Source: Escherichia coli
GTDB taxonomy: Bacteria > Pseudomonadota > Gammaproteobacteria > Enterobacterales > Enterobacteriaceae
Length of the DNA stretch: 64,000 nucleotides
Assembly: GCF_003334315.1 (NCBI RefSeq)
Contig: NZ_QOWR01000009.1
Direction: 5' to 3' (one strand)
Every line of letters starts with the position of its first letter. The first letter of the stretch is position 1. Below the pieces are notes generated by a model, which was not told the origin of the DNA, searched no databases, and was given only the letters and a program-made list of their open reading frames with translations. The position numbers were made by a program, and so were the translations under genes. Positions 24,408-35,386 of the stretch are shown here, in pieces.

Positions 24408-25106
24408 TTACGCAGCTACGGCTAACGCTGCCAGTAATTCATTCATCGATAAATATCTTGCACTCGCCGCATTAAAGCAGGTTTGTTGGGCATCTTCTGA
24501 TACCACAATGGTGTTTATTCCTGCCGCCTGTGCTGCCTGAAAACCACTCACGCTGTCCTCTATAACCAAACAATCTGCAGCAGACAGTTGCAATTCTCGC
24601 AGTGCAGAAAGATAAACTGCCGGATGGGGTTTCCCATGCTTTTCGTCATCAGCACTACAAATCACCGAAAAATAATGCTGAATATTGAGTTTTGTCAGTA
24701 CAGCATCGATCACCTGGTAAGATGAAGAGGTTGCCAGCGCCAGTTGATAGCCACTCCGGCGCAAAAAAAATAACACGTCCTGAACGCCTGGCATCGCTTC
24801 GCCCGTCCCGGCAATCAACGTAGTGATCAGGCGGCGAATCTCACTTTCCAACAGTGCGGGTTCAATGTGTAAATGACAATATTCACACCAGGTTTGGGCA
24901 ATCTCATCCAGCCTTTTACCTTTAGTCAGTCTTATACACTCTTCGTCACTGACACATGCGCCCCACCTTGCCAGTGCTCCCTTTTGTGCCTCACGCCATA
25001 ACCCTTCCGAATCAATGATGACGCCGTCCATATCAAAAATGACTGCTTTACAATTAAACATTGTTCCTCGCAATAAAGCCTGGCACCACACCAGGCTTGT
25101 CGTCAT
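24408..25106 (-). CDS. HAD-superfamily sugar-phosphate phosphatase (beta-phosphoglucomutase-like subfamily), 232 aa from the coupled ATG, or 217 aa if it starts at Met16 (25061)
   Basis: HAD motif I FDMDGVIIDSE, motif II (LATSS), motif III/IV (KPHP ... EDSVSG); its ATG overlaps the stop of the upstream permease (TGATG). Confidence 0.8.
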   Translation of the reverse strand: MTTSLVWCQALLRGTMFNCKAVIFDMDGVIIDSEGLWREAQKGALARWGACVSDEECIRLTKGKRLDEIAQTWCEYCHLHIEPALLESEIRRLITTLIAGTGEAMPGVQDVLFFLRRSGYQLALATSSSYQVIDAVLTKLNIQHYFSVICSADDEKHGKPHPAVYLSALRELQLSAADCLVIEDSVSGFQAAQAAGINTIVVSEDAQQTCFNAASARYLSMNELLAALAVAA

Positions 25107-26383
25107 CAGGAAATGGTGGCGGTCTTCCCTTCACACACTTGCTGATTTGAGAATCCCGGTTGTTCGACGCGAATAAACGGGCAAATAATAAACGCTATCA
25201 CATACAGGGTGGTGTAAGCGATAACCACACCAATAGTACTGAAATAAGGCAGAAGTACCACGGCGATTGCCGGAGCAAGGAAGTTGGACAACCCGGCTGA
25301 AAGGTTATAAACCGAAATAGCTGCTCCTTTATGTTTCGGTTCCAGTGCCGGGAAAACGGCTGCCATCGGTACGAATGCAGCAACAAAGATCCCCAGTGCC
25401 ACCGCAGGTATCAGCGCCATAGCAAAGTTATGACCGAAATGTTGCGGCATGTAGTAGAACGCCAGGCTTGAAAGCGCCATTCCCACGCAACCAAACCAGC
25501 GAACAACTTTCATCCAGCCCATTTTCTCTGCCAGCACGCCCCAGAATACGTTAGAGAAGATGGTGGTAAAGAAGAAGACTGCCCAGACCTGCAACCACTC
25601 AGAGGTGGTAAAGCCCAGCTCATCAACAAACATCATCGGCATAATTACGGCGAATCCGAATAAAGATAAGGTGTTGATAATGCGAACAATACTGGAAAGC
25701 AAAATATTGCGGTTGGTATAAAGCAAAGTCACCGCACGGCCCAGTTCGCTAAACTTCTCTTTTGTGGTTAGGTTTTGCATATGGCGTGGTGTTTCTACTT
25801 TGCGCATAGAAATTAACGCAACAGCGCCACCAACCCCACAGAAGGCCAGCGCCAGCCATAATGTTCCCATTTCGCCAATAAGCGGAATGGTAAAACTGGG
25901 GATGTAGCTGCCGAATACGCCGATACCAATAGAGTAAACTGCCCAGAACCAGCCCAGAGCAGCACTGGTGCTGTCACTGCGTACGTTATGGACAATCGCC
26001 ACAATAAAGGCGTAGAGGAACAGCGGATAGGCTAGGCCACGAATACCATAAAACAGCAGGATTAACCCATAGTTCGCCTGCCCCAGACCAAAGACCAGAA
26101 ACAGCACGTGAAATACGCACCACAGCACAAAGCCGATAAACATGGTTTTTTGTGGCGTAATAATTTCGGCAACTACGCCGGAAACCCAGGCGGAAAGCGC
26201 TGCCGCCAGGCCATAGAGCGTAAAGGCAAAGGAGGCTTCTGCAGGCGTGAAACCCAGTGCTTTAATGTAATGCGACAGGAATGCCAGTTCAAAACCGTCT
26301 CCGGTCATAAAGATGGCAATGGCAATATATCCCCACACCAGATTTAAGGGTAATCCCAGCCATTGTTTATTTGTTAACGACAT
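25106..26383 (-). CDS. dalT: MFS pentitol permease, D-arabinitol transporter type (425 aa)
   Basis: 12-TM MFS; near-identical to the second permease at 34112..35386; sits in the operon with xylulokinase and arabinitol dehydrogenase. Confidence 0.8.
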   Translation of the reverse strand: MSLTNKQWLGLPLNLVWGYIAIAIFMTGDGFELAFLSHYIKALGFTPAEASFAFTLYGLAAALSAWVSGVVAEIITPQKTMFIGFVLWCVFHVLFLVFGLGQANYGLILLFYGIRGLAYPLFLYAFIVAIVHNVRSDSTSAALGWFWAVYSIGIGVFGSYIPSFTIPLIGEMGTLWLALAFCGVGGAVALISMRKVETPRHMQNLTTKEKFSELGRAVTLLYTNRNILLSSIVRIINTLSLFGFAVIMPMMFVDELGFTTSEWLQVWAVFFFTTIFSNVFWGVLAEKMGWMKVVRWFGCVGMALSSLAFYYMPQHFGHNFAMALIPAVALGIFVAAFVPMAAVFPALEPKHKGAAISVYNLSAGLSNFLAPAIAVVLLPYFSTIGVVIAYTTLYVIAFIICPFIRVEQPGFSNQQVCEGKTATIS

Positions 26384-26451
26384 AGTGACCTCGTTTGTAG
26401 GATACAAAACGCCGCTCCGGTGCAAACACCGGAGGGCATTTGTGACAGATG

Positions 26452-27915
26452 TTATTGATTGCGATAGTTCAGGTCGTTGTGATACAGCGCAGTAAACTGC
26501 TGATATCGTTGCATCAGCGCATTATGACGTTCAGGATCGCTGCGCCAGGTTTTGAAGATTTCAGGTTTTTCACACACTGCCGCCAGTGGTTTTCCCGCAG
26601 CAAGACAGGCCAGACGCGCGGCTCCCAGCGCCCCACCCGTTTCACCGCCTTTATGCGTCACCACTGGCATATCGAGAATATCGGCCAGTAACTGCGCCCA
26701 GAATGGACTTCTCGCCCCCCCACCTACCAGCGAGCATTGCTCAATTGCCGTACCGCTTTCTTGCAGGACTCGCAGCCCATCGGCAATACCAAAGCTGACG
26801 CCTTCCAGCACTGCATATCCCATTAGCGCACGCTGACTGGAGTGTGTCAGCGCCCAGAACAATCCCCGGGCATGAGGATCGTTATGTGGCGTACGTTCAC
26901 CAGAAAGATACGGGAGGAACATCGGTGCACTGGCTTTGTCTGCATCAGAAAGTTGGGCAATCTCTTCCAGTAACTCTGTTTCCGTTACCCCCACCAGACG
27001 GCAGAACCATTGCAGACAACTGGCGGCACTGAGCATTACACTCATCTGGTGCCATAAATTCGGTAGTACGTGACAGAAAGCATGGACTGCTGATTGCGGC
27101 GCAGGACGATAGGCATCTGTCACTACAAACAACACCCCGGAAGTTCCCAAAGAAATAAACGCATCTCCGGGAGAAACGGCCCCCACACCAATTGCGCTCA
27201 CGGCGTTATCGCCACCGCCACCAGCAACTACAACCGAAGATGTCAGCCCCCAACGGCTGGCAACTTCAGGGGAAAGAGTGGCAGAAACGTCACAACCTTC
27301 CACCAGTTCCGGCATATTCGCCCGTGTCAGGCCACATTTTTCCAGCAACGAATCTGACCAGTCGCGTTTTTCCACGTCGAGCCACAACGTGCCAGCAGAA
27401 TCCGACATATCGGAAATCTTTTGGCCGGTCATTTTGAAACGCAAATAGTCTTTCGGCAGTAAAACGGTGGAAATGCGCGCAAAGTGCTGCGGCTCATGGC
27501 GCCGTACCCATAGCAATTTGGGGGCGGTAAATCCAGGCATCGCCAGGTTTCCCGCTACCTGATGCAACTCTGGTGCGATCTCTTCCAGCTCCGCACACTC
27601 CTGCGCACTGCGGGTGTCGTTCCATAAAATCGCCGGACGAATCGCCTCTCCTTTTTCATCCAACAGGACGGCACCATGCATTTGACCAGAAAGGCCAATG
27701 GCTTTGATCGCCTGCCAGTGGTGACCGCATTTTTCCCGCAGGGTCGACATTAAATATTCCGTCGCTTCCCACCAGGCTTGCGGCGATTGTTCTGACCAGT
27801 GTGGATGGGGCCGCTGAATGGTCAGCGGCGCACTATGGGTGGCAACAATTTCATTGTTTTCATCAATGACCAGCGCCTTAACTTCCGATGTGCCCAGATC
27901 GATACCCAGATACAT
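26452..27915 (-). CDS. dalK: FGGY-family D-xylulokinase (487 aa)
   Basis: XylB-like N-terminus MYLGIDLGTSEVKA and FGGY C-terminal domain. Confidence 0.85.
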   Translation of the reverse strand: MYLGIDLGTSEVKALVIDENNEIVATHSAPLTIQRPHPHWSEQSPQAWWEATEYLMSTLREKCGHHWQAIKAIGLSGQMHGAVLLDEKGEAIRPAILWNDTRSAQECAELEEIAPELHQVAGNLAMPGFTAPKLLWVRRHEPQHFARISTVLLPKDYLRFKMTGQKISDMSDSAGTLWLDVEKRDWSDSLLEKCGLTRANMPELVEGCDVSATLSPEVASRWGLTSSVVVAGGGGDNAVSAIGVGAVSPGDAFISLGTSGVLFVVTDAYRPAPQSAVHAFCHVLPNLWHQMSVMLSAASCLQWFCRLVGVTETELLEEIAQLSDADKASAPMFLPYLSGERTPHNDPHARGLFWALTHSSQRALMGYAVLEGVSFGIADGLRVLQESGTAIEQCSLVGGGARSPFWAQLLADILDMPVVTHKGGETGGALGAARLACLAAGKPLAAVCEKPEIFKTWRSDPERHNALMQRYQQFTALYHNDLNYRNQ

Positions 27916-27928
27916 AACCGCCTCCTGG

Positions 27929-29296
27929 TTAGTTAATTAACGCGTAGACGTCAGCGATTTTTTCGCGCAACAACGCGGCAAAATCTTCACGTTCGGTTAA
28001 ATCGCCAAACAGCGCTTTATCACTGGCATAAACAGCGACGGGATCGGCAGACTGGAACATTGCATGGACAGCTGGTGCATCAAGGATGCCATCCTGATAT
28101 TCATAGGGCAGTTTGCCGTGATGCCATTGCTCCATGAATACGTAAAACAGTGCAGGTAACATGGCGGTGGCATTCGGGCGAACGCCTCGCTGGTAGCACT
28201 CTCGCAGTGTGGGGGCAATCATCGCCGGAATTTTCGAGAAACCATCCGCAGCGACGCGTTGGTTGGTGTCCTGAATATGTGGATTGGTAAAACGCTTGAG
28301 TACAACATCACGGTAGGTTGGCAAATCGATACCGTTATCGCCCAAGCAAGGAATGACATCTTCCGTCACGTAGCGGTCGGCAATCTGATAGATAAAATCG
28401 GTCATTGTGCTTTCGTGGATATATTTTTGACCGATTAACGTACCTGCCCAGGCGATGCAACTGTGTGAAGAGTTAAGAATGCGAATCTTCGCCTCTTCAT
28501 AGGGGATTACCGACGCCACCAGTTCGACACCGACCTTCTCCAGTGCCGGACGGACATCACGGAAATTATCTTCCACGACCCACTGGATAAAGGTTTCGCC
28601 CATTACCGGCGCTTTATCGGCAATACCCGTTTGAGCCTTGATCCGTGCCGGAAGTTCTGCTGCCGGACGAGGCGTAATGCGGTCAACCATGGTATTCGGG
28701 CAAGTGGTATTTGTACTCAGCCAGTCGATGACATCCTGTTTGCCAGTTAGCTGGAGAAACTCAACCAGGCCATCATGGAAACGTTCACCATTATGGCGCA
28801 CGTTATCGCAATTCAGCAGGGTTAGTGGTCCGGCGTTATTTGCCATACGTGCTTCGAGGATACGGGTAATAACACCGTAAATTGTTTTGCATCCCCCTTT
28901 AAGATCTGCCGCTAAATCAGGATTGTTAACTTCCAGTTTGTGACTGGTATTCAGGTAGTACCCGCCTTCGGTGACGGTGAAAGCAATCACTTTTGTCTTC
29001 GGATCTGCCCCTTCAGCAATCAGCGGTTGTAAATCTGCCTGCCACGGTATCAACTTCTGAATTGAGGTGATCTCTTCATATTCGCTTACCCCTTCCGGGC
29101 TGACGGTTTCCAGCACATAGCGACCTTTCTGTGCACTGAGTGCCTGTACGACATGTTCAGCATCATTACGAATATTGCCCGCAGCAATGCTCCAGCGTTT
29201 ATCGCCCATCACCTGCAAACGGTGTAGATACCACGCCTGATGTGCGCGATGAAAAGAACCTAACCCGATGTGCAGCCATGTAAATTGTTCGTTCAT
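27929..29296 (-). CDS. dalD: D-arabinitol 4-dehydrogenase, mannitol dehydrogenase family (455 aa; ORF-track start 29341 is an extension)
   Basis: Long-chain mannitol-DH family Rossmann N-terminus ([13 protein letters not shown]); GGAG RBS before the ATG at 29296. Confidence 0.85.
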
Positions 29297-29508
29297 TGTT
29301 TCGTTCTCCATTGACGTTATGGCTGAACTGTAATCGAACATTTGAGTTAATTAAGAGCGTTAGATCACAAAAGAACAATTGACCAAAAAAATTACAAATG
29401 ACCAAATCAAAGCAATAAACTTGCCTCGCGGTAAAGCTATGGCCAAAATGACGCTAATCAGTTGCGGGATTTTCACGATTCCGCACGCCACTTTTGAGGT
29501 AGGGAAAC

Positions 29509-30450
29509 GTGAACAAAGAAGATGACATCAGGCTCGATCAAAAAGTACGGGCGGCATGGATGTACTACATTGCCGGACTTAATCAGAGTGAAATCGCAAG
29601 TCAGTTAGGTACTTCACGGCCAGTGGTTCAACGCCTGATAGCAGCAGCGAAAGACGAAGGGATTGTGTCGATTGGATTGCATCATCCGGTTGCCAACTGT
29701 CTCGATTATGCCCAACTGTTAAAGGAAAAGTACCAATTAACCGACTGCAATATTATGCCGGTTTACAGTATTGAAAGTACGCTCGACAGCGTGACATTTG
29801 GCTGTTATCAACTGATGGCGCGTTACTTACAGGGTGACAAACCGACCATCGTTGGTATTGGTTCTGGCTTAACGTTGAAGAAAACCATTAAACGTATCGA
29901 TTTTGATAGTCAGAATACCCGCTGTGTGGCGCTGATTAGCGCCATGAATGAACACGGGCAATGTAACTATTACGACGACGTACCGCTGCTTTTGGCGAGA
30001 AAAATTCAGGGAAAATATTACCAGTGGCCAGCTCCACGCTATGCTCAGTCCCGCGAAGAGTACCAAATGTGGTCAACCAATCGATTGTTCCGCAACGTCT
30101 CTACCGTAGCGCGTGACTCTGATGTTATTTTCGTGGGTATTGGTGCTTTAGGTCGTCAAAGCCCTATTTTCAAAGATGGCTTTATTGATGAGCAGCAACT
30201 GGAAGAGTTAACAGCACGCGGAGGCGTTGGTGAAATCCTCGGACGCTTTATTGATGCTGAAGGCAATGTTGTGGAAAGCCAGATCAACCAGATGATCACC
30301 AGCCATGATATCCGCGAAAGCAACTGCCCACGTATCGCAGCTGCCTGTGGTGAGGATAAACGTCCGGCGATCCTCGCAGCATTAAAAGGTGGGTGGATCA
30401 ACGGTCTGGTCACCGATGAACACACCGCACGCTGGTTGCTGACACGTTAA
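29509..30450 (+). CDS. dalR: SorC/DeoR-type sugar-binding transcriptional regulator (313 aa), probable D-arabinitol operon repressor
   Basis: N-terminal HTH (SEIASQLGTSRPVVQRLIAAAKDEG) plus sugar-binding C-terminal domain; divergent from the arabinitol operon. Confidence 0.75.
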   Translation: MNKEDDIRLDQKVRAAWMYYIAGLNQSEIASQLGTSRPVVQRLIAAAKDEGIVSIGLHHPVANCLDYAQLLKEKYQLTDCNIMPVYSIESTLDSVTFGCYQLMARYLQGDKPTIVGIGSGLTLKKTIKRIDFDSQNTRCVALISAMNEHGQCNYYDDVPLLLARKIQGKYYQWPAPRYAQSREEYQMWSTNRLFRNVSTVARDSDVIFVGIGALGRQSPIFKDGFIDEQQLEELTARGGVGEILGRFIDAEGNVVESQINQMITSHDIRESNCPRIAAACGEDKRPAILAALKGGWINGLVTDEHTARWLLTR

Positions 30451-30452
30451 TC

Positions 30453-31484
30453 TCAGCTGACAACATTCAGGCTCGGAATAAGTTGTGGCGGTATCTCAAT
30501 GCGACGCAGGGTGGTATCGCCAGAATCCACAATTTCAAACACTTTTTCGAGCATGGCGGGTACATCCTGACGAACCATATCGATATCGTGCCCGAGCAGA
30601 GAAACAAAAGGATCCCAGTCAAAACACCCCATTGGCGGTTGATTGGCTCCCGTCTGCCCGGTTTGCGCCAGCCAGCGAACCACCCCTTCAAGAGAGATTG
30701 TCGAGTTGACGAATAACCCGTGAAGCGATACTGCAGAGCTTTGGAAGACCTCTTTCAGTAATCCCTCTACGCGAGCAGAAGAGTAGCCGGTAACCAGTTT
30801 ATGTTCATCCGGTACGGTTATCCCCAAAGCCTGATGGGCATCGACAAAACCACATAAACGTTCAGCAGTATTGTTATCGCTTATACGTCCACCGACAAAA
30901 GTCAAAGGTGCCAGCTTGCCATAGCGTTTCTGGCTGTTGGCTAAAATTCTTTCCGTCAATAATTTCGCCCCCATATAGTTATCAGAAATGATCGACGGCG
31001 CCAGTGTTCCCGGCAGATCCAGATTCAGTGTCGGTACGCCCGCTTGCTGGCACATTTGGGCTATTTTATCCGGTTGAGTCGCTCCGGTAGCAATGACCCA
31101 ATCCACCTGCCAGGAGAGCATGGCGCGAGCAGCCTCAATTTCCAGTTCTGGCTGTCGCCGCGTACAGGTGATGATTGGCAGTAATCCTCTGGCACGCGCC
31201 ATCTCTTCAAATTTTTCGGCAATCGATCCAAAGTATCGGTTGTCATATTTCGGCACAATCATGCCAATAACGTTGGATTTTTTACTGCGCAGTAAACTTG
31301 CCTGCCGATTAATGGCATATCCCTGCTCTTCCGCAATACGGGTGACCTTCTCAGCCAGCTTTGCGCTGATGCGTCGCTTTTTCCAGTTGCCATTCAAAAT
31401 AGCGCTTACCGCACTGGCAGAAACGCCGGTTAATTCTGCCAGGTCGTAAATGGTCGTTTTCTTCGTTTTCTCAACGCGTGTCAC
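30453..31484 (-). CDS. rbtR: LacI-family transcriptional regulator (343 aa), probable ribitol operon repressor
   Basis: LacI-type HTH (TIYDLAELTGVSASAVSAILNG) and periplasmic-binding-protein-like effector domain; divergent from the ribitol operon and convergent with the other regulator. Confidence 0.75.
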   Translation of the reverse strand: MTRVEKTKKTTIYDLAELTGVSASAVSAILNGNWKKRRISAKLAEKVTRIAEEQGYAINRQASLLRSKKSNVIGMIVPKYDNRYFGSIAEKFEEMARARGLLPIITCTRRQPELEIEAARAMLSWQVDWVIATGATQPDKIAQMCQQAGVPTLNLDLPGTLAPSIISDNYMGAKLLTERILANSQKRYGKLAPLTFVGGRISDNNTAERLCGFVDAHQALGITVPDEHKLVTGYSSARVEGLLKEVFQSSAVSLHGLFVNSTISLEGVVRWLAQTGQTGANQPPMGCFDWDPFVSLLGHDIDMVRQDVPAMLEKVFEIVDSGDTTLRRIEIPPQLIPSLNVVS

Positions 31485-31541
31485 AAATTTGCCTCTTCAT
31501 TTTGAATGTCTCTTGCTGAGAATTTAAGCAAGTGCTAGATC

Positions 31542-31559
31542 TGCTTCATCGATTGAGCA
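31542..31559. promoter_or_regulatory. Candidate LacI-type operator in the ribitol regulator/operon intergenic region
   Basis: TGCTTCATCGATTGAGCA: 14 of 18 positions self-complementary around a central ATCGAT. Confidence 0.35.
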
Positions 31560-31642
31560 GTTTGCTTCACACGGCAGCTAAATTCCCGTTCAGTGCGTGC
31601 AAGCAAACAGAGACTATAAATTCGCCCTGGTAAAAGGATTAT

Positions 31643-32395
31643 ATGATGAATCACTCTGTGCCCTCTATGAATACTCCCCTTAATGGCAAAGTTGCAGCTA
31701 TCACTGGCGCTGCGTCAGGTATTGGCCTGCAATGTGCAAAAACGCTGCTCGATGCAGGAGCAAAGGTAGTATTGATTGACCGGGAAGGCGACAAACTGCA
31801 CAAGATTGTCGCTGAGTTAGGCGAAAACGCGTACGCGCTGCAACTCGATCTCTTCAATAATCAGCAAGTCGATAACATGCTGGCGGACATTATCGAACTG
31901 GCGGGTGGGCTGGATATTTTTCATGCCAATGCAGGCGCTTATATTGGCGGCCCAGTGACTGAAGGTGATCCAGATGTCTGGGATCGTGTGTTAAATCTGA
32001 ATATAAATGCGGCGTTTCGCTGTGTCCGTGCAGTCCTGCCGCATATGATTGCGCAGAGGTCGGGCGATATAATTTTTACCAGTTCCATCGCGGGCGTCGT
32101 TCCGGTTATCTGGGAACCGATCTACACCGCGTCCAAATTTGCCGTTCAGGCATTCGTACACACTACCCGCCGCCAGGTTTCTCAATATGGCGTGCGTGTG
32201 GGTGCGGTGCTGCCAGGACCAGTAGTCACTGCCCTGCTTGATGACTGGCCAAAAGCCAAAATGGAAGAAGCCCTGGCAAATGGTAGCCTGATGCAACCGA
32301 TTGAAGTGGCGGAATCAGTATTGTTTATGGTGACCCGCTCGAAAAATGTCACCGTGCGAGATTTAGTGATCCTGCCTGGCAGTGTCGATCTGTAA
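31643..32395 (+). CDS. rbtD: Ribitol 2-dehydrogenase, short-chain dehydrogenase/reductase family (250 aa)
   Basis: SDR cofactor motif [13 protein letters not shown] and catalytic YTASK; matches Klebsiella ribitol dehydrogenase as I recall it. Confidence 0.88.
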
Positions 32396-32405
32396 GGGCG
32401 CAATC

Positions 32406-34010
32406 ATGACAATAACCAAAACCGTTATTGGTGTTGATGTGGGATCAGGCAGTGTCCGCGCCGGGATTTTTGATCTCAACGGATCTCTGCTATCCCATGC
32501 CACAGAAAAAATCACGACTACGCGGCGCAGCGGAAGCCGCGTGGAACAGTCCAGCCAGGAGATCTGGCAGGCGGTCTGTTCATGTATTCGTAATGCGCTC
32601 ACTCTGGCAGACGTTTGTGCACAAAGTGTGGCAGGCATCGGTTTTGATGCCACCTGTTCTCTGGTGGTACTGGATAAAAACGGTGATCCATTGCCTGTCA
32701 GCCCGGAAGGAGATGCAAAGCAAAATATCATTGTGTGGATGGATCACCGCGCCACCGAACAAGCAGAGCGAATCAATGCCACTCACCATCCGGTGCTGAA
32801 CTACGTCGGTGGTAAAATTTCGCCTGAAATGGAAACACCGAAAATTCTCTGGCTGAAAGAAAATATGCCAGAGATCTACGAACGTGCCGGACAATTTTTC
32901 GATCTGGCCGATTTTCTGACCTGGCGGGCTACCGGTGATTTAGCGCGTTCAGTATGCACTGTTACCTGTAAATGGACGTGGCTGGCACATGAAAATCGCT
33001 GGGATCCAGATTATTTCCGCACCATTGGCCTTGCAGAGTTAGCGGATGAAGATTTTATTCGCATTGGTCATCATATTGTTTCTCCCGGAACACCTTGTGG
33101 AAATGGTTTAACAGCACAAGCCGCGGCAGAGATGGGATTACTCCCCGGCACACCTGTCGCTGTAGGGTTAATTGATGCTCACGCTGGTGGCATCGGTACG
33201 GTTGGCGTAGAAGGTGGAGCGCTGAACAATCTCGCGTATGTTTTCGGCACTTCTTCATGCACCATGGCATCTACCACTTCTCCCTCGTTTGTACCGGGTG
33301 TCTGGGGGCCGTATTACAGTGCGATGGTTCCAGGTCTGTGGTTAGTTGAAGGCGGGCAAAGTGCTGCGGGAGCAGCTATTGACCAGCTACTTGATTTCCA
33401 TCCGGCTGTTGAAGAAGCTCGCGAAATGGCACAACGTGTGAATCAGCCCCTCCCCGTCTGGCTTGCTGATCGAATCCTCGAAAAAACGGCGCAACCATCA
33501 GATGCTGTCGCCCTGGCGAAAGGGCTACACGTGGTGCCGGAATTTCTCGGAAATCGCGCCCCCTTCGCAGATCCTCATGCCAGAGCGGTAATTTGTGGCC
33601 TGGGTATGGAGCGAGATCTGGATAATTTACTCGCCTTGTATATCGCTGGATTATGCGGAATTGGTTATGGTCTGCGCCAAATTCTCGACGCTCAAACAGC
33701 GCAGGGAGTAGTGAGTAAAAATATCGTTATTAGCGGCGGTGCCGGGCAGCATCCACTGGTACGACAAATTCTGGCAGATACCTGCGGTATTCCGGTCATT
33801 ACCACGCAATGCTGCGAACCGGTTTTATTAGGCTCGGCCATTCTTGGTGCTGTCGCCGGAAATATTGCACCTTCTGTTGGCGAAGCGATGCAACAATTCA
33901 CCCATGTGGATAAATATTATTATCCGCAAGAACGCTATCAATCTCTTCATCATCGTCGATATGAGGCCTATAAGCAGTTGCAGCATACTGCAAAATTACT
34001 CAGAGACTAA
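32406..34010 (+). CDS. rbtK: FGGY-family D-ribulokinase (534 aa; ORF-track start 32382 overlaps rbtD)
   Basis: FGGY N-terminus (VIGVDVGSGSVRAGIFD) and C-terminal domain. Confidence 0.85.
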   Translation: MTITKTVIGVDVGSGSVRAGIFDLNGSLLSHATEKITTTRRSGSRVEQSSQEIWQAVCSCIRNALTLADVCAQSVAGIGFDATCSLVVLDKNGDPLPVSPEGDAKQNIIVWMDHRATEQAERINATHHPVLNYVGGKISPEMETPKILWLKENMPEIYERAGQFFDLADFLTWRATGDLARSVCTVTCKWTWLAHENRWDPDYFRTIGLAELADEDFIRIGHHIVSPGTPCGNGLTAQAAAEMGLLPGTPVAVGLIDAHAGGIGTVGVEGGALNNLAYVFGTSSCTMASTTSPSFVPGVWGPYYSAMVPGLWLVEGGQSAAGAAIDQLLDFHPAVEEAREMAQRVNQPLPVWLADRILEKTAQPSDAVALAKGLHVVPEFLGNRAPFADPHARAVICGLGMERDLDNLLALYIAGLCGIGYGLRQILDAQTAQGVVSKNIVISGGAGQHPLVRQILADTCGIPVITTQCCEPVLLGSAILGAVAGNIAPSVGEAMQQFTHVDKYYYPQERYQSLHHRRYEAYKQLQHTAKLLRD

Positions 34011-34111
34011 TTAACCAGCCGCCTGACGCTGTTTTCAGGCAATCACTAATAACGACTCACTCCGGTAATATCCCGGAGTGCATTCATCTGCACCCTAAAA
34101 ACGAGGTTTAT

Positions 34112-35386
34112 ATGTCCAGAAATAATAAACAGTGGTTGGGTTTGCCACTGCATCTGATATGGGGATATATCGCCATCGCAGTATTTATGACTGGTGATGG
34201 TTTCGAACTCGCATTCTTATCGCACTATATTAAATCGTTAGGCTTCACACCTGCGGAAGCCTCTTTTGCCTTTACGCTCTACGGCCTGGCGGCTGCCCTT
34301 TCCGCCTGGGTTTCTGGGGTAGTAGCGGAAATCATCACGCCGCAAAAAACCATGCTGATTGGTTTTGTCCTATGGTGCGTATTCCATGTTCTGTTTCTGG
34401 TCTTTGGATTAGGACAGGCAAACTATGGGTTAATCCTGCTGTTTTACGGGATTCGTGGTTTAGCGTATCCGCTATTTCTCTACTCATTTATCGTCGTTAT
34501 TATTCATAACGTGCGTAGCGAAAATTCCAGTTCTGCTCTGGGTTGGTACTGGGCGGTATATTCAGTAGGGATCGGTGTTGCTGGCAGTTATATTCCCAGT
34601 TTTACGATACCGATTATGGGTGAAATGGGAACCTTATGGCTGGCACTGGCGTTCTGCTTTGCTGGCGGTGTCATTGCCATGATCTCCTTGCGTCATGTTA
34701 AAACGCCTGGACATATGCATAATTTAACTCCCCGTGAGAAGTTTGCAGAATTAAGTCGGGCAGTAACTTTACTTTATACCAACCGCAATATTTTTCTCTC
34801 CAGTATTGTGCGCATTATAAATACCTTATCGTTATTCGGTTTTGCGGTCATTATGCCAATGATGTTTGTGGATGAACTGGGATTCACCACCTCTGAATGG
34901 TTGCAGGTCTGGGCGGCATTTTTCTTTACCACTATTTTCTCTAATATTTTTTGGGGGATTGTGGCAGAAAAAATGGGCTGGATGCGTGTTATTCGCTGGT
35001 TTGGTTGCCTCGGGATGGCAGCATCAAGTTTAGCGTTTTACTACATGCCGCAATACTTTGGTCACAACTACTGGATGGCAATGATTCCGGCGATTGCTCT
35101 GGGAACTTTTGTTGCTGCATTTGTGCCGATGGCCGCTGTCTTCCCGGCACTGGAACCAAAACACAAAGGTGCTGCAATCTCGGTTTACAACCTCTCTGCG
35201 GGTATGTCTAACTTCCTGGCTCCGGCAATTGCCGTGGTGTTATTACCGTGGTTTAGCACTATCGGTGTGGTCATTGCCTATACAGCATTGTATCTATTGG
35301 CCTTTGTCCTTTGCGCATTCATTCGCGTTGAGCAGCCAGGATTCAGTTCTGCGCCAGTGACTGAGAAGGCATTGAATATCTCCTGA
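34112..35386 (+). CDS. rbtT: MFS pentitol permease, ribitol transporter type (424 aa)
   Basis: Near-identical paralog of the permease at 25106..26383 (N-termini NKQWLGLPL.L.WGYIAIA.FMTGDGFELAFLSHYIK.LGFTPAEASFAFTLYGLAAALSAWVSGVVAEIITPQKTM). Confidence 0.8.
   Translation: MSRNNKQWLGLPLHLIWGYIAIAVFMTGDGFELAFLSHYIKSLGFTPAEASFAFTLYGLAAALSAWVSGVVAEIITPQKTMLIGFVLWCVFHVLFLVFGLGQANYGLILLFYGIRGLAYPLFLYSFIVVIIHNVRSENSSSALGWYWAVYSVGIGVAGSYIPSFTIPIMGEMGTLWLALAFCFAGGVIAMISLRHVKTPGHMHNLTPREKFAELSRAVTLLYTNRNIFLSSIVRIINTLSLFGFAVIMPMMFVDELGFTTSEWLQVWAAFFFTTIFSNIFWGIVAEKMGWMRVIRWFGCLGMAASSLAFYYMPQYFGHNYWMAMIPAIALGTFVAAFVPMAAVFPALEPKHKGAAISVYNLSAGMSNFLAPAIAVVLLPWFSTIGVVIAYTALYLLAFVLCAFIRVEQPGFSSAPVTEKALNIS

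Follow-up and report, generated by a model that had tools for sequence, protein, structure and literature searches.

Ribitol catabolic genes in Escherichia coli are read away from the gene of a LacI-family regulator, and the question raised by this locus is where in the short region between the two divergent genes the regulator acts, and whether it acts there in one direction or in both. A first-pass annotation had pointed to a near-palindrome between rbtR and rbtD, here designated O1, as a candidate operator that sets both divergent promoters. This proposal was followed up by computational analysis of the 64,000-nt stretch of DNA that carries the locus (the window) and of homologous loci from other bacteria.

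The ribitol/D-arabitol island and its LacI-type regulator

The window is E. coli chromosomal DNA and contains a ribitol/D-arabitol island between yegS and fbaB, at 25106-35386 (flanks as seen in locus L083). Link and Reiner reportedly spoke of a 'genotypic exclusion' between the ribitol/D-arabitol genes and the gat genes at the same place. In E. coli K-12, the galactitol genes gatYZABCDR are found there, and the ribitol genes have been described in E. coli C (PMC6805351, PMC2806823), in the genome of which rbtD encodes ribitol 2-dehydrogenase (PMC6805351). The gene order in the island is dalT-xylB-dalD, the gene of a SorC-type regulator, rbtR, and rbtD-rbtK-rbtT (Table 1), where rbtK encodes an FGGY pentulose kinase and rbtT an MFS transporter. 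The SorC-type gene and rbtR converge (30450-30453) with 2 nt between their stops, which leaves no room for a terminator.

The rbtR product carries the Pfam LacI domain (PF00356) and Peripla_BP domains (PF00532, PF13407), and it is named 'LacI family DNA-binding transcriptional regulator' in RefSeq; a probable ribosome-binding site of the gene, AAGAGG, is the complement of 31492-31497. The protein is 76-77% identical to the regulators of Klebsiella and Raoultella (76% to that of K. pneumoniae ATCC 13883, where the gene order is the same), and rbtD is 87-90% identical to the divergent gene in loci of Klebsiella, Enterobacter and Raoultella. RbtR is an orthologue of Klebsiella RbtR, is encoded divergently from rbtD-rbtK-rbtT and lies beside the D-arabitol genes, which is the arrangement by which an RbtR-type regulon is recognised. 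In the 5' end of rbtR, the 9-mer TCGTTTTCT occurs twice as an exact tandem repeat (31454-31471); it encodes KTKKTT, a lysine/threonine-rich N-terminal tail directly before the helix-turn-helix of RbtR.

For rbtD, two in-frame ATG codons are present, at 31643 and 31646, with a Shine-Dalgarno sequence AAGGA at 31634-31638. The second ATG is favoured, because it gives the 249-aa form of RefSeq and because the single ATG of the homologues aligns there; the exact 250-aa product was absent from the protein collection. If the first ATG is used, the gap between rbtR and rbtD runs from 31485 to 31642 and measures 158 nt.

Table 1. Coordinates, in the window, of the genes and sequence elements of the rbt control region
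Feature	Position	Strand	Basis
SorC-type (arabitol) regulator	29509-30450	+	ORF
rbtR, LacI-family repressor, 343 aa, GTG start	30453-31484	-	ORF, Pfam, RefSeq
Degenerate palindrome CTTGCTGAGAATTTAAGCAAG, symmetric at 16/21 positions	31512-31532	.	site of the Klebsiella second operator
Predicted rbtD-ward promoter, -35 TTGCTG (31513-31518), -10 TAGATC (31536-31541) abutting O1	31513-31541	+	homology
O1, candidate RbtR operator, TGCTTCATCGATTGAGCA	31542-31559	.	sequence and conservation
Isolated half-site-like TGCTTCA, 21 nt after the left half of O1	31563-31569	+	repeat search
rbtD, ribitol dehydrogenase (SDR), first gene of rbtD-rbtK-rbtT	31646-32395	+	ORF, homologues

O1 has the format of a LacI-family operator

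When O1 was compared with its own reverse complement, TGCTCAATCGATGAAGCA, 14 of the 18 positions (7 of the 9 pairs) proved symmetric around a central CG at 31550/31551, and the near-palindrome described in the first-pass annotation was thus recovered at exactly the coordinates given there. Of the two halves, the right one, GATTGAGCA, has the consensus half-site sequence, and the left one, TGCTTCATC, is an imperfect half-site that is conserved as such. A repeat search lists the same element as a palindrome with overlapping arms of 13 nt (31541-31560). The centre of O1 lies in the gap at 66 nt from the start codon of rbtR and at 92-95 nt from that of rbtD. Operators of the LacI family are even palindromes of 16-22 nt with a central CG, located 30-140 nt upstream of start codons, and the CG is present in 1173 of 1303 motifs of the family (PMC4052901). 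The earlier suggestion that the site has the size expected for a dimer of this family holds, since O1 is an even 18-bp site with a central CG and falls within this range; furthermore, it lies at a fitting distance from the start codons, next to the gene of a cis-encoded LacI/GalR-family regulator, and it is conserved phylogenetically.

Symmetry of this degree is common, however, in random sequence. Within the 64-kb window, 86 18-mers reach 7 or more of 9 pairs, or about 0.21 per 158 nt, and dinucleotide-preserving shuffles of the gap yield an equal palindrome in 26.7% of cases and one with a central CG in 3.1%. The symmetry of O1 by itself is not significant, and because the shuffles make it unremarkable, O1 is meaningful only through comparative evidence.

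O1 is conserved together with RbtR from Enterobacteriaceae to rhizobia

Loci were collected by a scan for RbtR relatives with one genome per species, which gave 80 loci whose regulators are 61-88% identical to RbtR; with a divergent E. coli allele, the set comes to 81. The genera Enterobacter, Leclercia, Klebsiella, Raoultella, Cedecea, Buttiauxella, Yersinia, Providencia, Xenorhabdus, Moellerella and Pantoea are represented, and the alphaproteobacterial side of the set comprises many Rhizobium, Shinella, Ensifer and Mesorhizobium. An 18-mer that agrees with the ideal palindrome at 14 or more of 18 positions stands upstream of the regulator gene in 80 of the 81 loci, which are related by descent and horizontal transfer and do not count as independent events; the single locus without it has just 15 nt of upstream DNA. 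The centre of the site is found 58-70 nt (mostly 64-68) before the regulator start, and its orientation is the same throughout the 80 loci. Positions 2-12 and 15-17, i.e., 14 of 18, are invariant in the 81 sites, and the information content of these sites is 32.8 bits, uncorrected for phylogeny.

The control region shows no second block of this kind: across 58 dereplicated loci, O1 is the sole highly conserved one, at an average of 1.81 bits per column, compared with 0.22 and 0.49 for the 50-nt flanks. Furthermore, the E. coli site is 98% identical to those of 27 alphaproteobacterial loci, whereas the flanks are identical at 25-31%, which is the random level. Two checks that had been proposed earlier, conservation of the palindrome in homologous loci and comparison with Klebsiella rbt control regions, were thereby carried out, and both speak for the site; in Klebsiella, the same operator stands at the same distance from rbtR (L009). 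In the RbtR orthologues of the same loci, the helix-turn-helix TIYDLAELxGxSASAVSAxLNGxWKKRRIS is likewise invariant.

The operon that faces the regulator is not constant. In a rhizobial locus (L078) and a Yersinia locus (L025), a sugar ABC transporter takes the place of rbtD on the divergent side, and no SorC-type regulator was found near the RbtR-like gene in these two sampled neighbourhoods. Since the site stays when the operon changes and when the SorC-type gene is absent, it belongs to the regulator and not to rbtD or to the arabitol regulator. As judged from these comparisons, a regulator-operator-promoter module is kept while the operon that it drives differs, and the 18-mer is very probably the operator of RbtR, the LacI-family repressor whose gene adjoins it on the left. 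The same operator faces a sugar ABC transporter operon in L025, in L078 and in most of the loci L026-L081 (rhizobia and some Yersinia- or Pantoea-like bacteria).

Predicted promoters and mode of control at O1

Promoters were scored in 36 loci with our own position-weight scoring. Nearly all lineages retain two sequence blocks in the interval from O1 to the start codon of the regulator. In most lineages, the top-scoring promoter reading outward from the regulator has the form TTGACA-17/18-(C)AATNNT, with a -10 that ends at or against the outer base of O1; it was found in Yersinia, Providencia, Xenorhabdus, Moellerella, Pantoea-like bacteria and essentially all rhizobial loci. The corresponding hexamers of E. 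coli, TTGCTG and TAGATC, are weak (4.8 bits); they are separated by a 17-nt spacer with a TG at 31533-31534, and the start of transcription is predicted at about A31548, some 7 nt past the -10. A standard sigma-70 scan of the E. coli gap called no promoter, and the supplements on K. pneumoniae transcription start sites hold no rbt entry. A -10-like TATAAA at 31615-31620, nearer to rbtD, marks a possible alternative promoter; if it were in use, O1 would lie at about -77 and simple occlusion would not apply.

On the predicted geometry, a dimer of RbtR would bind O1 through its helix-turn-helix domains, one at the consensus half-site TGCTCAATC and one at the imperfect half-site TGCTTCATC, with the central CG between them. 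O1 would begin right after the -10 of the promoter into rbtD-rbtK-rbtT, so that the bound repressor would cover about -6 to +12 and, lying over the rbtD-ward start, would exclude RNA polymerase. An inducer bound to the sugar-binding domain of RbtR would then release the repressor; in the classical Klebsiella literature, the inducer is D-ribulose made from ribitol. Occlusion of the rbtD promoter by repressor at O1 is likely, with the position of the promoter taken from homology. It is also plausible that rbtR itself is autoregulated from O1, a proposal for which we consider the chances to be evenly balanced.

Relation of RbtR and O1 to known systems

The nearest solved structure to RbtR is that of PsiR from Agrobacterium tumefaciens (PDB 9KPR; E 4e-75), which is 41% identical to RbtR, with 33 of 60 residues identical in the DNA-binding domain, is a dimer in the crystal, and is a LacI-family paralogue of RbtR rather than its orthologue. 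The operator of PsiR, PsiO (ATTGCACAATCGATGGTGCAA, core TGCACAATCGATGGTGCA), matches O1 at 15 of 18 positions, and the imperfect half is the same one in both. Placed after the -10 and before the ribosome-binding site, PsiO functions as an operator (PMC12748958); for pTac, a 20-bp consensus site is enough to confer induction by psicose, and the divergent promoters pPsiA and pPsiR are both under the control of PsiR and psicose (PMC7445875). Natural pPsiA consists of a -35 TTGACG, 16 nt, a -10 TATGGT, 3 nt and the operator, with a second operator 22 bp further on; the PsiR operator thus follows closely on the -10 of the outward promoter, as predicted for O1. The PsiR system differs, however, in its effector (psicose), its target (an ABC transporter), its second operator at 22 bp, and the distance to the regulator start (86 nt, against 66 nt for O1).

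The rbt region of Klebsiella aerogenes and K. pneumoniae is orthologous to that of E. coli, with rbtR and rbtD divergent and the operator AGCTTCATCGATTGAGCA at the same distance, but Klebsiella and Raoultella have a second, inverted copy of the operator and a gap of 233-277 nt instead of 158 nt. The RbtR repressor and the Klebsiella rbt control region are reportedly the subject of Wu et al. (1985, EMBO J 4:1339). In PMC2978694, Klebsiella RbtR is counted as a LacI-family member whose natural binding site is known, and a natural RbtR site is reported as used in experiments that swap the specificity of LacI. A LacI-family regulon survey has RbtR for Rhodobacterales among the entries listed, and a literature search on rbtD and rbtK returned no match.

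The arrangement predicted for O1 also resembles that of LacI and lacO1, in which an imperfect palindrome lies over the start of the regulated transcript, represses by occlusion, and is relieved by a sugar-derived inducer. The format of lacO1 is odd (21 bp), whereas O1 is even with a central CG; in addition, E. coli rbt shows no sign of auxiliary operators or looping, and rbtR is divergent and shares the control region. O1 is most probably an ordinary LacI-type operator, and it may well count as known already by homology.

Alternative explanations

O1 could be an RbtR operator for the rbtD-ward promoter only, with rbtR expressed constitutively from a weak promoter that the repressor does not affect. 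Neither the standard scan nor the position-weight scoring gave a convincing rbtR promoter in E. coli; the hexamers beside O1 are best read away from rbtR, and many lineages have a perfect TTGACA there; and many LacI-type repressors, lacI included, are constitutive. Against this stands the geometry of the region: with just 66 nt between the rbtR start codon and the centre of O1, and with the ribosome-binding site at 31492-31497, any rbtR promoter must overlap O1 or lie beyond it, such that a short leader would place its -35 inside O1 and transcription with a long leader would pass through O1. Moreover, outside the E. coli and Klebsiella clades (rhizobia and Yersinia-like loci), a regulator-ward TTGCCA-17-CAAGNT has its -35 adjoining O1, and the homologous pPsiR is regulated by PsiR and psicose. 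Control of rbtD alone is a possibility that we regard as rather unlikely. The first-pass proposal that the site sets both divergent promoters can be kept for the rbtD-ward side, where geometry, conserved hexamers and the likeness to PsiR point to such control; for the rbtR side, it is just plausible.

A different protein might bind O1, either Cra (FruR) or the SorC-type arabitol regulator, whose gene is separated from the end of rbtR by 2 nt. Cra is the nearest named E. coli family to RbtR by profile, and both share an extended NGxxKxxRIS loop after the recognition helix; among NCBIfam profiles, RbtR is matched best by those of the fructose/sucrose repressor subfamily and of Cra, in each case below the cut-off, and Cra structures are the next PDB matches after PsiR. 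Cra sites, like O1, are built around an ATCGAT-type centre with GCT...AGC at the ends, and asymmetry is characteristic of them; the ideal Cra site, GCTGAATCGATTCAGC, differs from O1 at 3 of 16 positions. The Cra half-site is TGAA, however, whereas O1 has TCAA/TTCA, and both half-sites thus differ at the G, the most conserved Cra position; the recognition-helix residues aligned to LacI 17, 18 and 22 are R, T and Y in Cra and A, S and A in RbtR; and Cra is a global regulator, while RbtR is a local one with a one-site regulon within the window. The site also co-occurs with RbtR orthologues in alphaproteobacteria and Yersinia, where the SorC-type gene is absent (L078, L025), and its invariance parallels that of the RbtR recognition helix, so that another binder is very unlikely. 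An effect at the level of RNA, with O1 forming a short hairpin or resembling a terminator within the rbtD leader, is suggested by a terminator scan, which lists 31541-31560 with a 6-pair stem, an 8-nt loop and a following TTTGCTT, but the T-run is poor, there is no Rfam match, and the predicted transcript start falls inside O1. The non-pairing positions are, in addition, never restored in the 81 sites, no compensatory change is seen, and the invariant ATCGAT would be the loop, where selection on RNA would not conserve sequence; such an element is extremely improbable. That O1 is a chance near-palindrome without function would agree with the frequency of equal palindromes in the shuffles, but hardly with the identity between gamma- and alphaproteobacteria amid flanks at the random level, the fixed position and orientation in 80 loci, or the near-identity to a tested operator, PsiO; a very recent transfer of a single DNA segment, as a source of that identity, is excluded by the protein identities of 61-77%, and chance has a negligible probability. 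Binding of RbtR to O1, with occlusion of the rbtD-ward promoter, is the reading that we prefer.

Asymmetry of the half-sites, second operators and other repeats

The half-site nearest the regulator is never symmetric: at positions 13-14, read in the regulator orientation, the 81 loci have GA, GG, GT or AG, never TG, while positions 5-6 are an invariant CA in the 81 sites. On the outward strand, a pyrimidine followed by A is always present at the predicted start point in these loci, and the PsiO half-site nearest the regulator gene follows the same pattern. This pattern hints that the 18-mer serves both the repressor and the polymerase. Taken further, and only tentatively, the imperfection could be a conserved design rather than drift, in which a dual-coded 18-mer would combine a half-strength half-site with the initiation region of the catabolic promoter and would lie against two promoters that overlap face to face, with one hexamer serving as -35 in one direction and as -10 in the opposite one. 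Transcription in both directions would then be set by a single dimer, and the module would have stayed intact between alpha- and gammaproteobacteria while the operon was swapped. If this is true, the E. coli clade would have lost both kinds of auxiliary operator, and leakier repression than in Klebsiella is predicted for it.

The auxiliary operators are of two kinds. A second site lies exactly 22 bp beyond O1 in 42 of the 81 loci, which is the rhizobial type and the arrangement of PsiO, and 10 loci (Klebsiella and Raoultella) have a full inverted copy, matching at 15 of 18 positions, 28-29 bp toward rbtR and over the -35. No second operator was found in the E. coli clade, where the best flanking match is 7-9 of 18, and the rest of the gap and of the rbt/atl island contains no other site within 5 mismatches. 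The degenerate palindrome CTTGCTGAGAATTTAAGCAAG (Table 1) was considered as an RbtR site and rejected, with a best match of 9 of 18; the outer TGCT/AGCA are kept, but the CAATCGATG core is absent, and the element may be a decayed second operator that is now only a -35 region. The isolated TGCTTCA downstream of O1 was also rejected as a second operator (best match 7 of 18).

Further repeats are present in the gap. A perfect 8-nt inverted repeat, GTTTGCTT at 31560-31567 and AAGCAAAC at 31601-31608, with arms 33 nt apart, lies in the presumed rbtD leader; its left arm repeats the half-site-like TGCTTCA, which is conserved in the clade of E. coli, Enterobacter and Leclercia, and similar arms occur in Enterobacter and Leclercia loci; RNAalifold on 31555-31615 from five members of the clade gave no shared long hairpin. 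Inspection of the gap by eye for a CRP site showed just a half-site, TCACA at 31567-31571, with a poor partner.

Implications and possible uses

With O1, the rbt genes of E. coli, which were classically studied in strain C, gain a defined candidate operator and a testable promoter model. The 18-bp motif TGCTCAATCGATG[AGT]AGCA marks RbtR-type regulons from Enterobacteriaceae to rhizobia, and O1 together with RbtR could be made into a ribitol- or ribulose-responsive switch similar to the PsiR/PsiO biosensor. The added value is modest and lies in the exact motif, the depth of its conservation, the lineage-specific auxiliary sites and the concrete promoter model; concepts of gene regulation are unchanged by O1.

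Distribution and annotation of the locus

The stretch is present in 315 of 5426 complete E. coli genomes (about 6%), with an identity of 99% or more in 302 of them and of about 84% in the other 13; the allele of these 13 adjoins an intact gat operon (L001). In E. coli CEA106S (NZ_CP166722.1; L082), an IS1A is inserted within rbtD and rbtK carries a frameshift, but the control region and rbtR are intact; the ribitol pathway is decaying in this strain. An IS1 in the control region of CEA106S had been considered and was rejected, as the element interrupts rbtD instead. A further copy of the rbtR-rbtD gap, 100% identical and with no feature listed, is located at 129481-129638 of CP137936.1, a 365-kb record that is filed as a non-mobilisable E. 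coli plasmid but may represent a piece of chromosome or a replicon assigned wrongly.

Identical or nearly identical RbtR proteins are recorded under the names 'LacI family', 'substrate-binding domain-containing protein', 'Maltose regulon regulatory protein MalI' and 'fructose operon transcriptional repressor'; no record in the RbtR protein cluster is named as a ribitol repressor, and the names 'MalI' and 'fructose repressor' are wrong. Because the regulator is now named just 'LacI family' or, in some records, is misnamed in this way, the motif could improve the annotation of its regulon.
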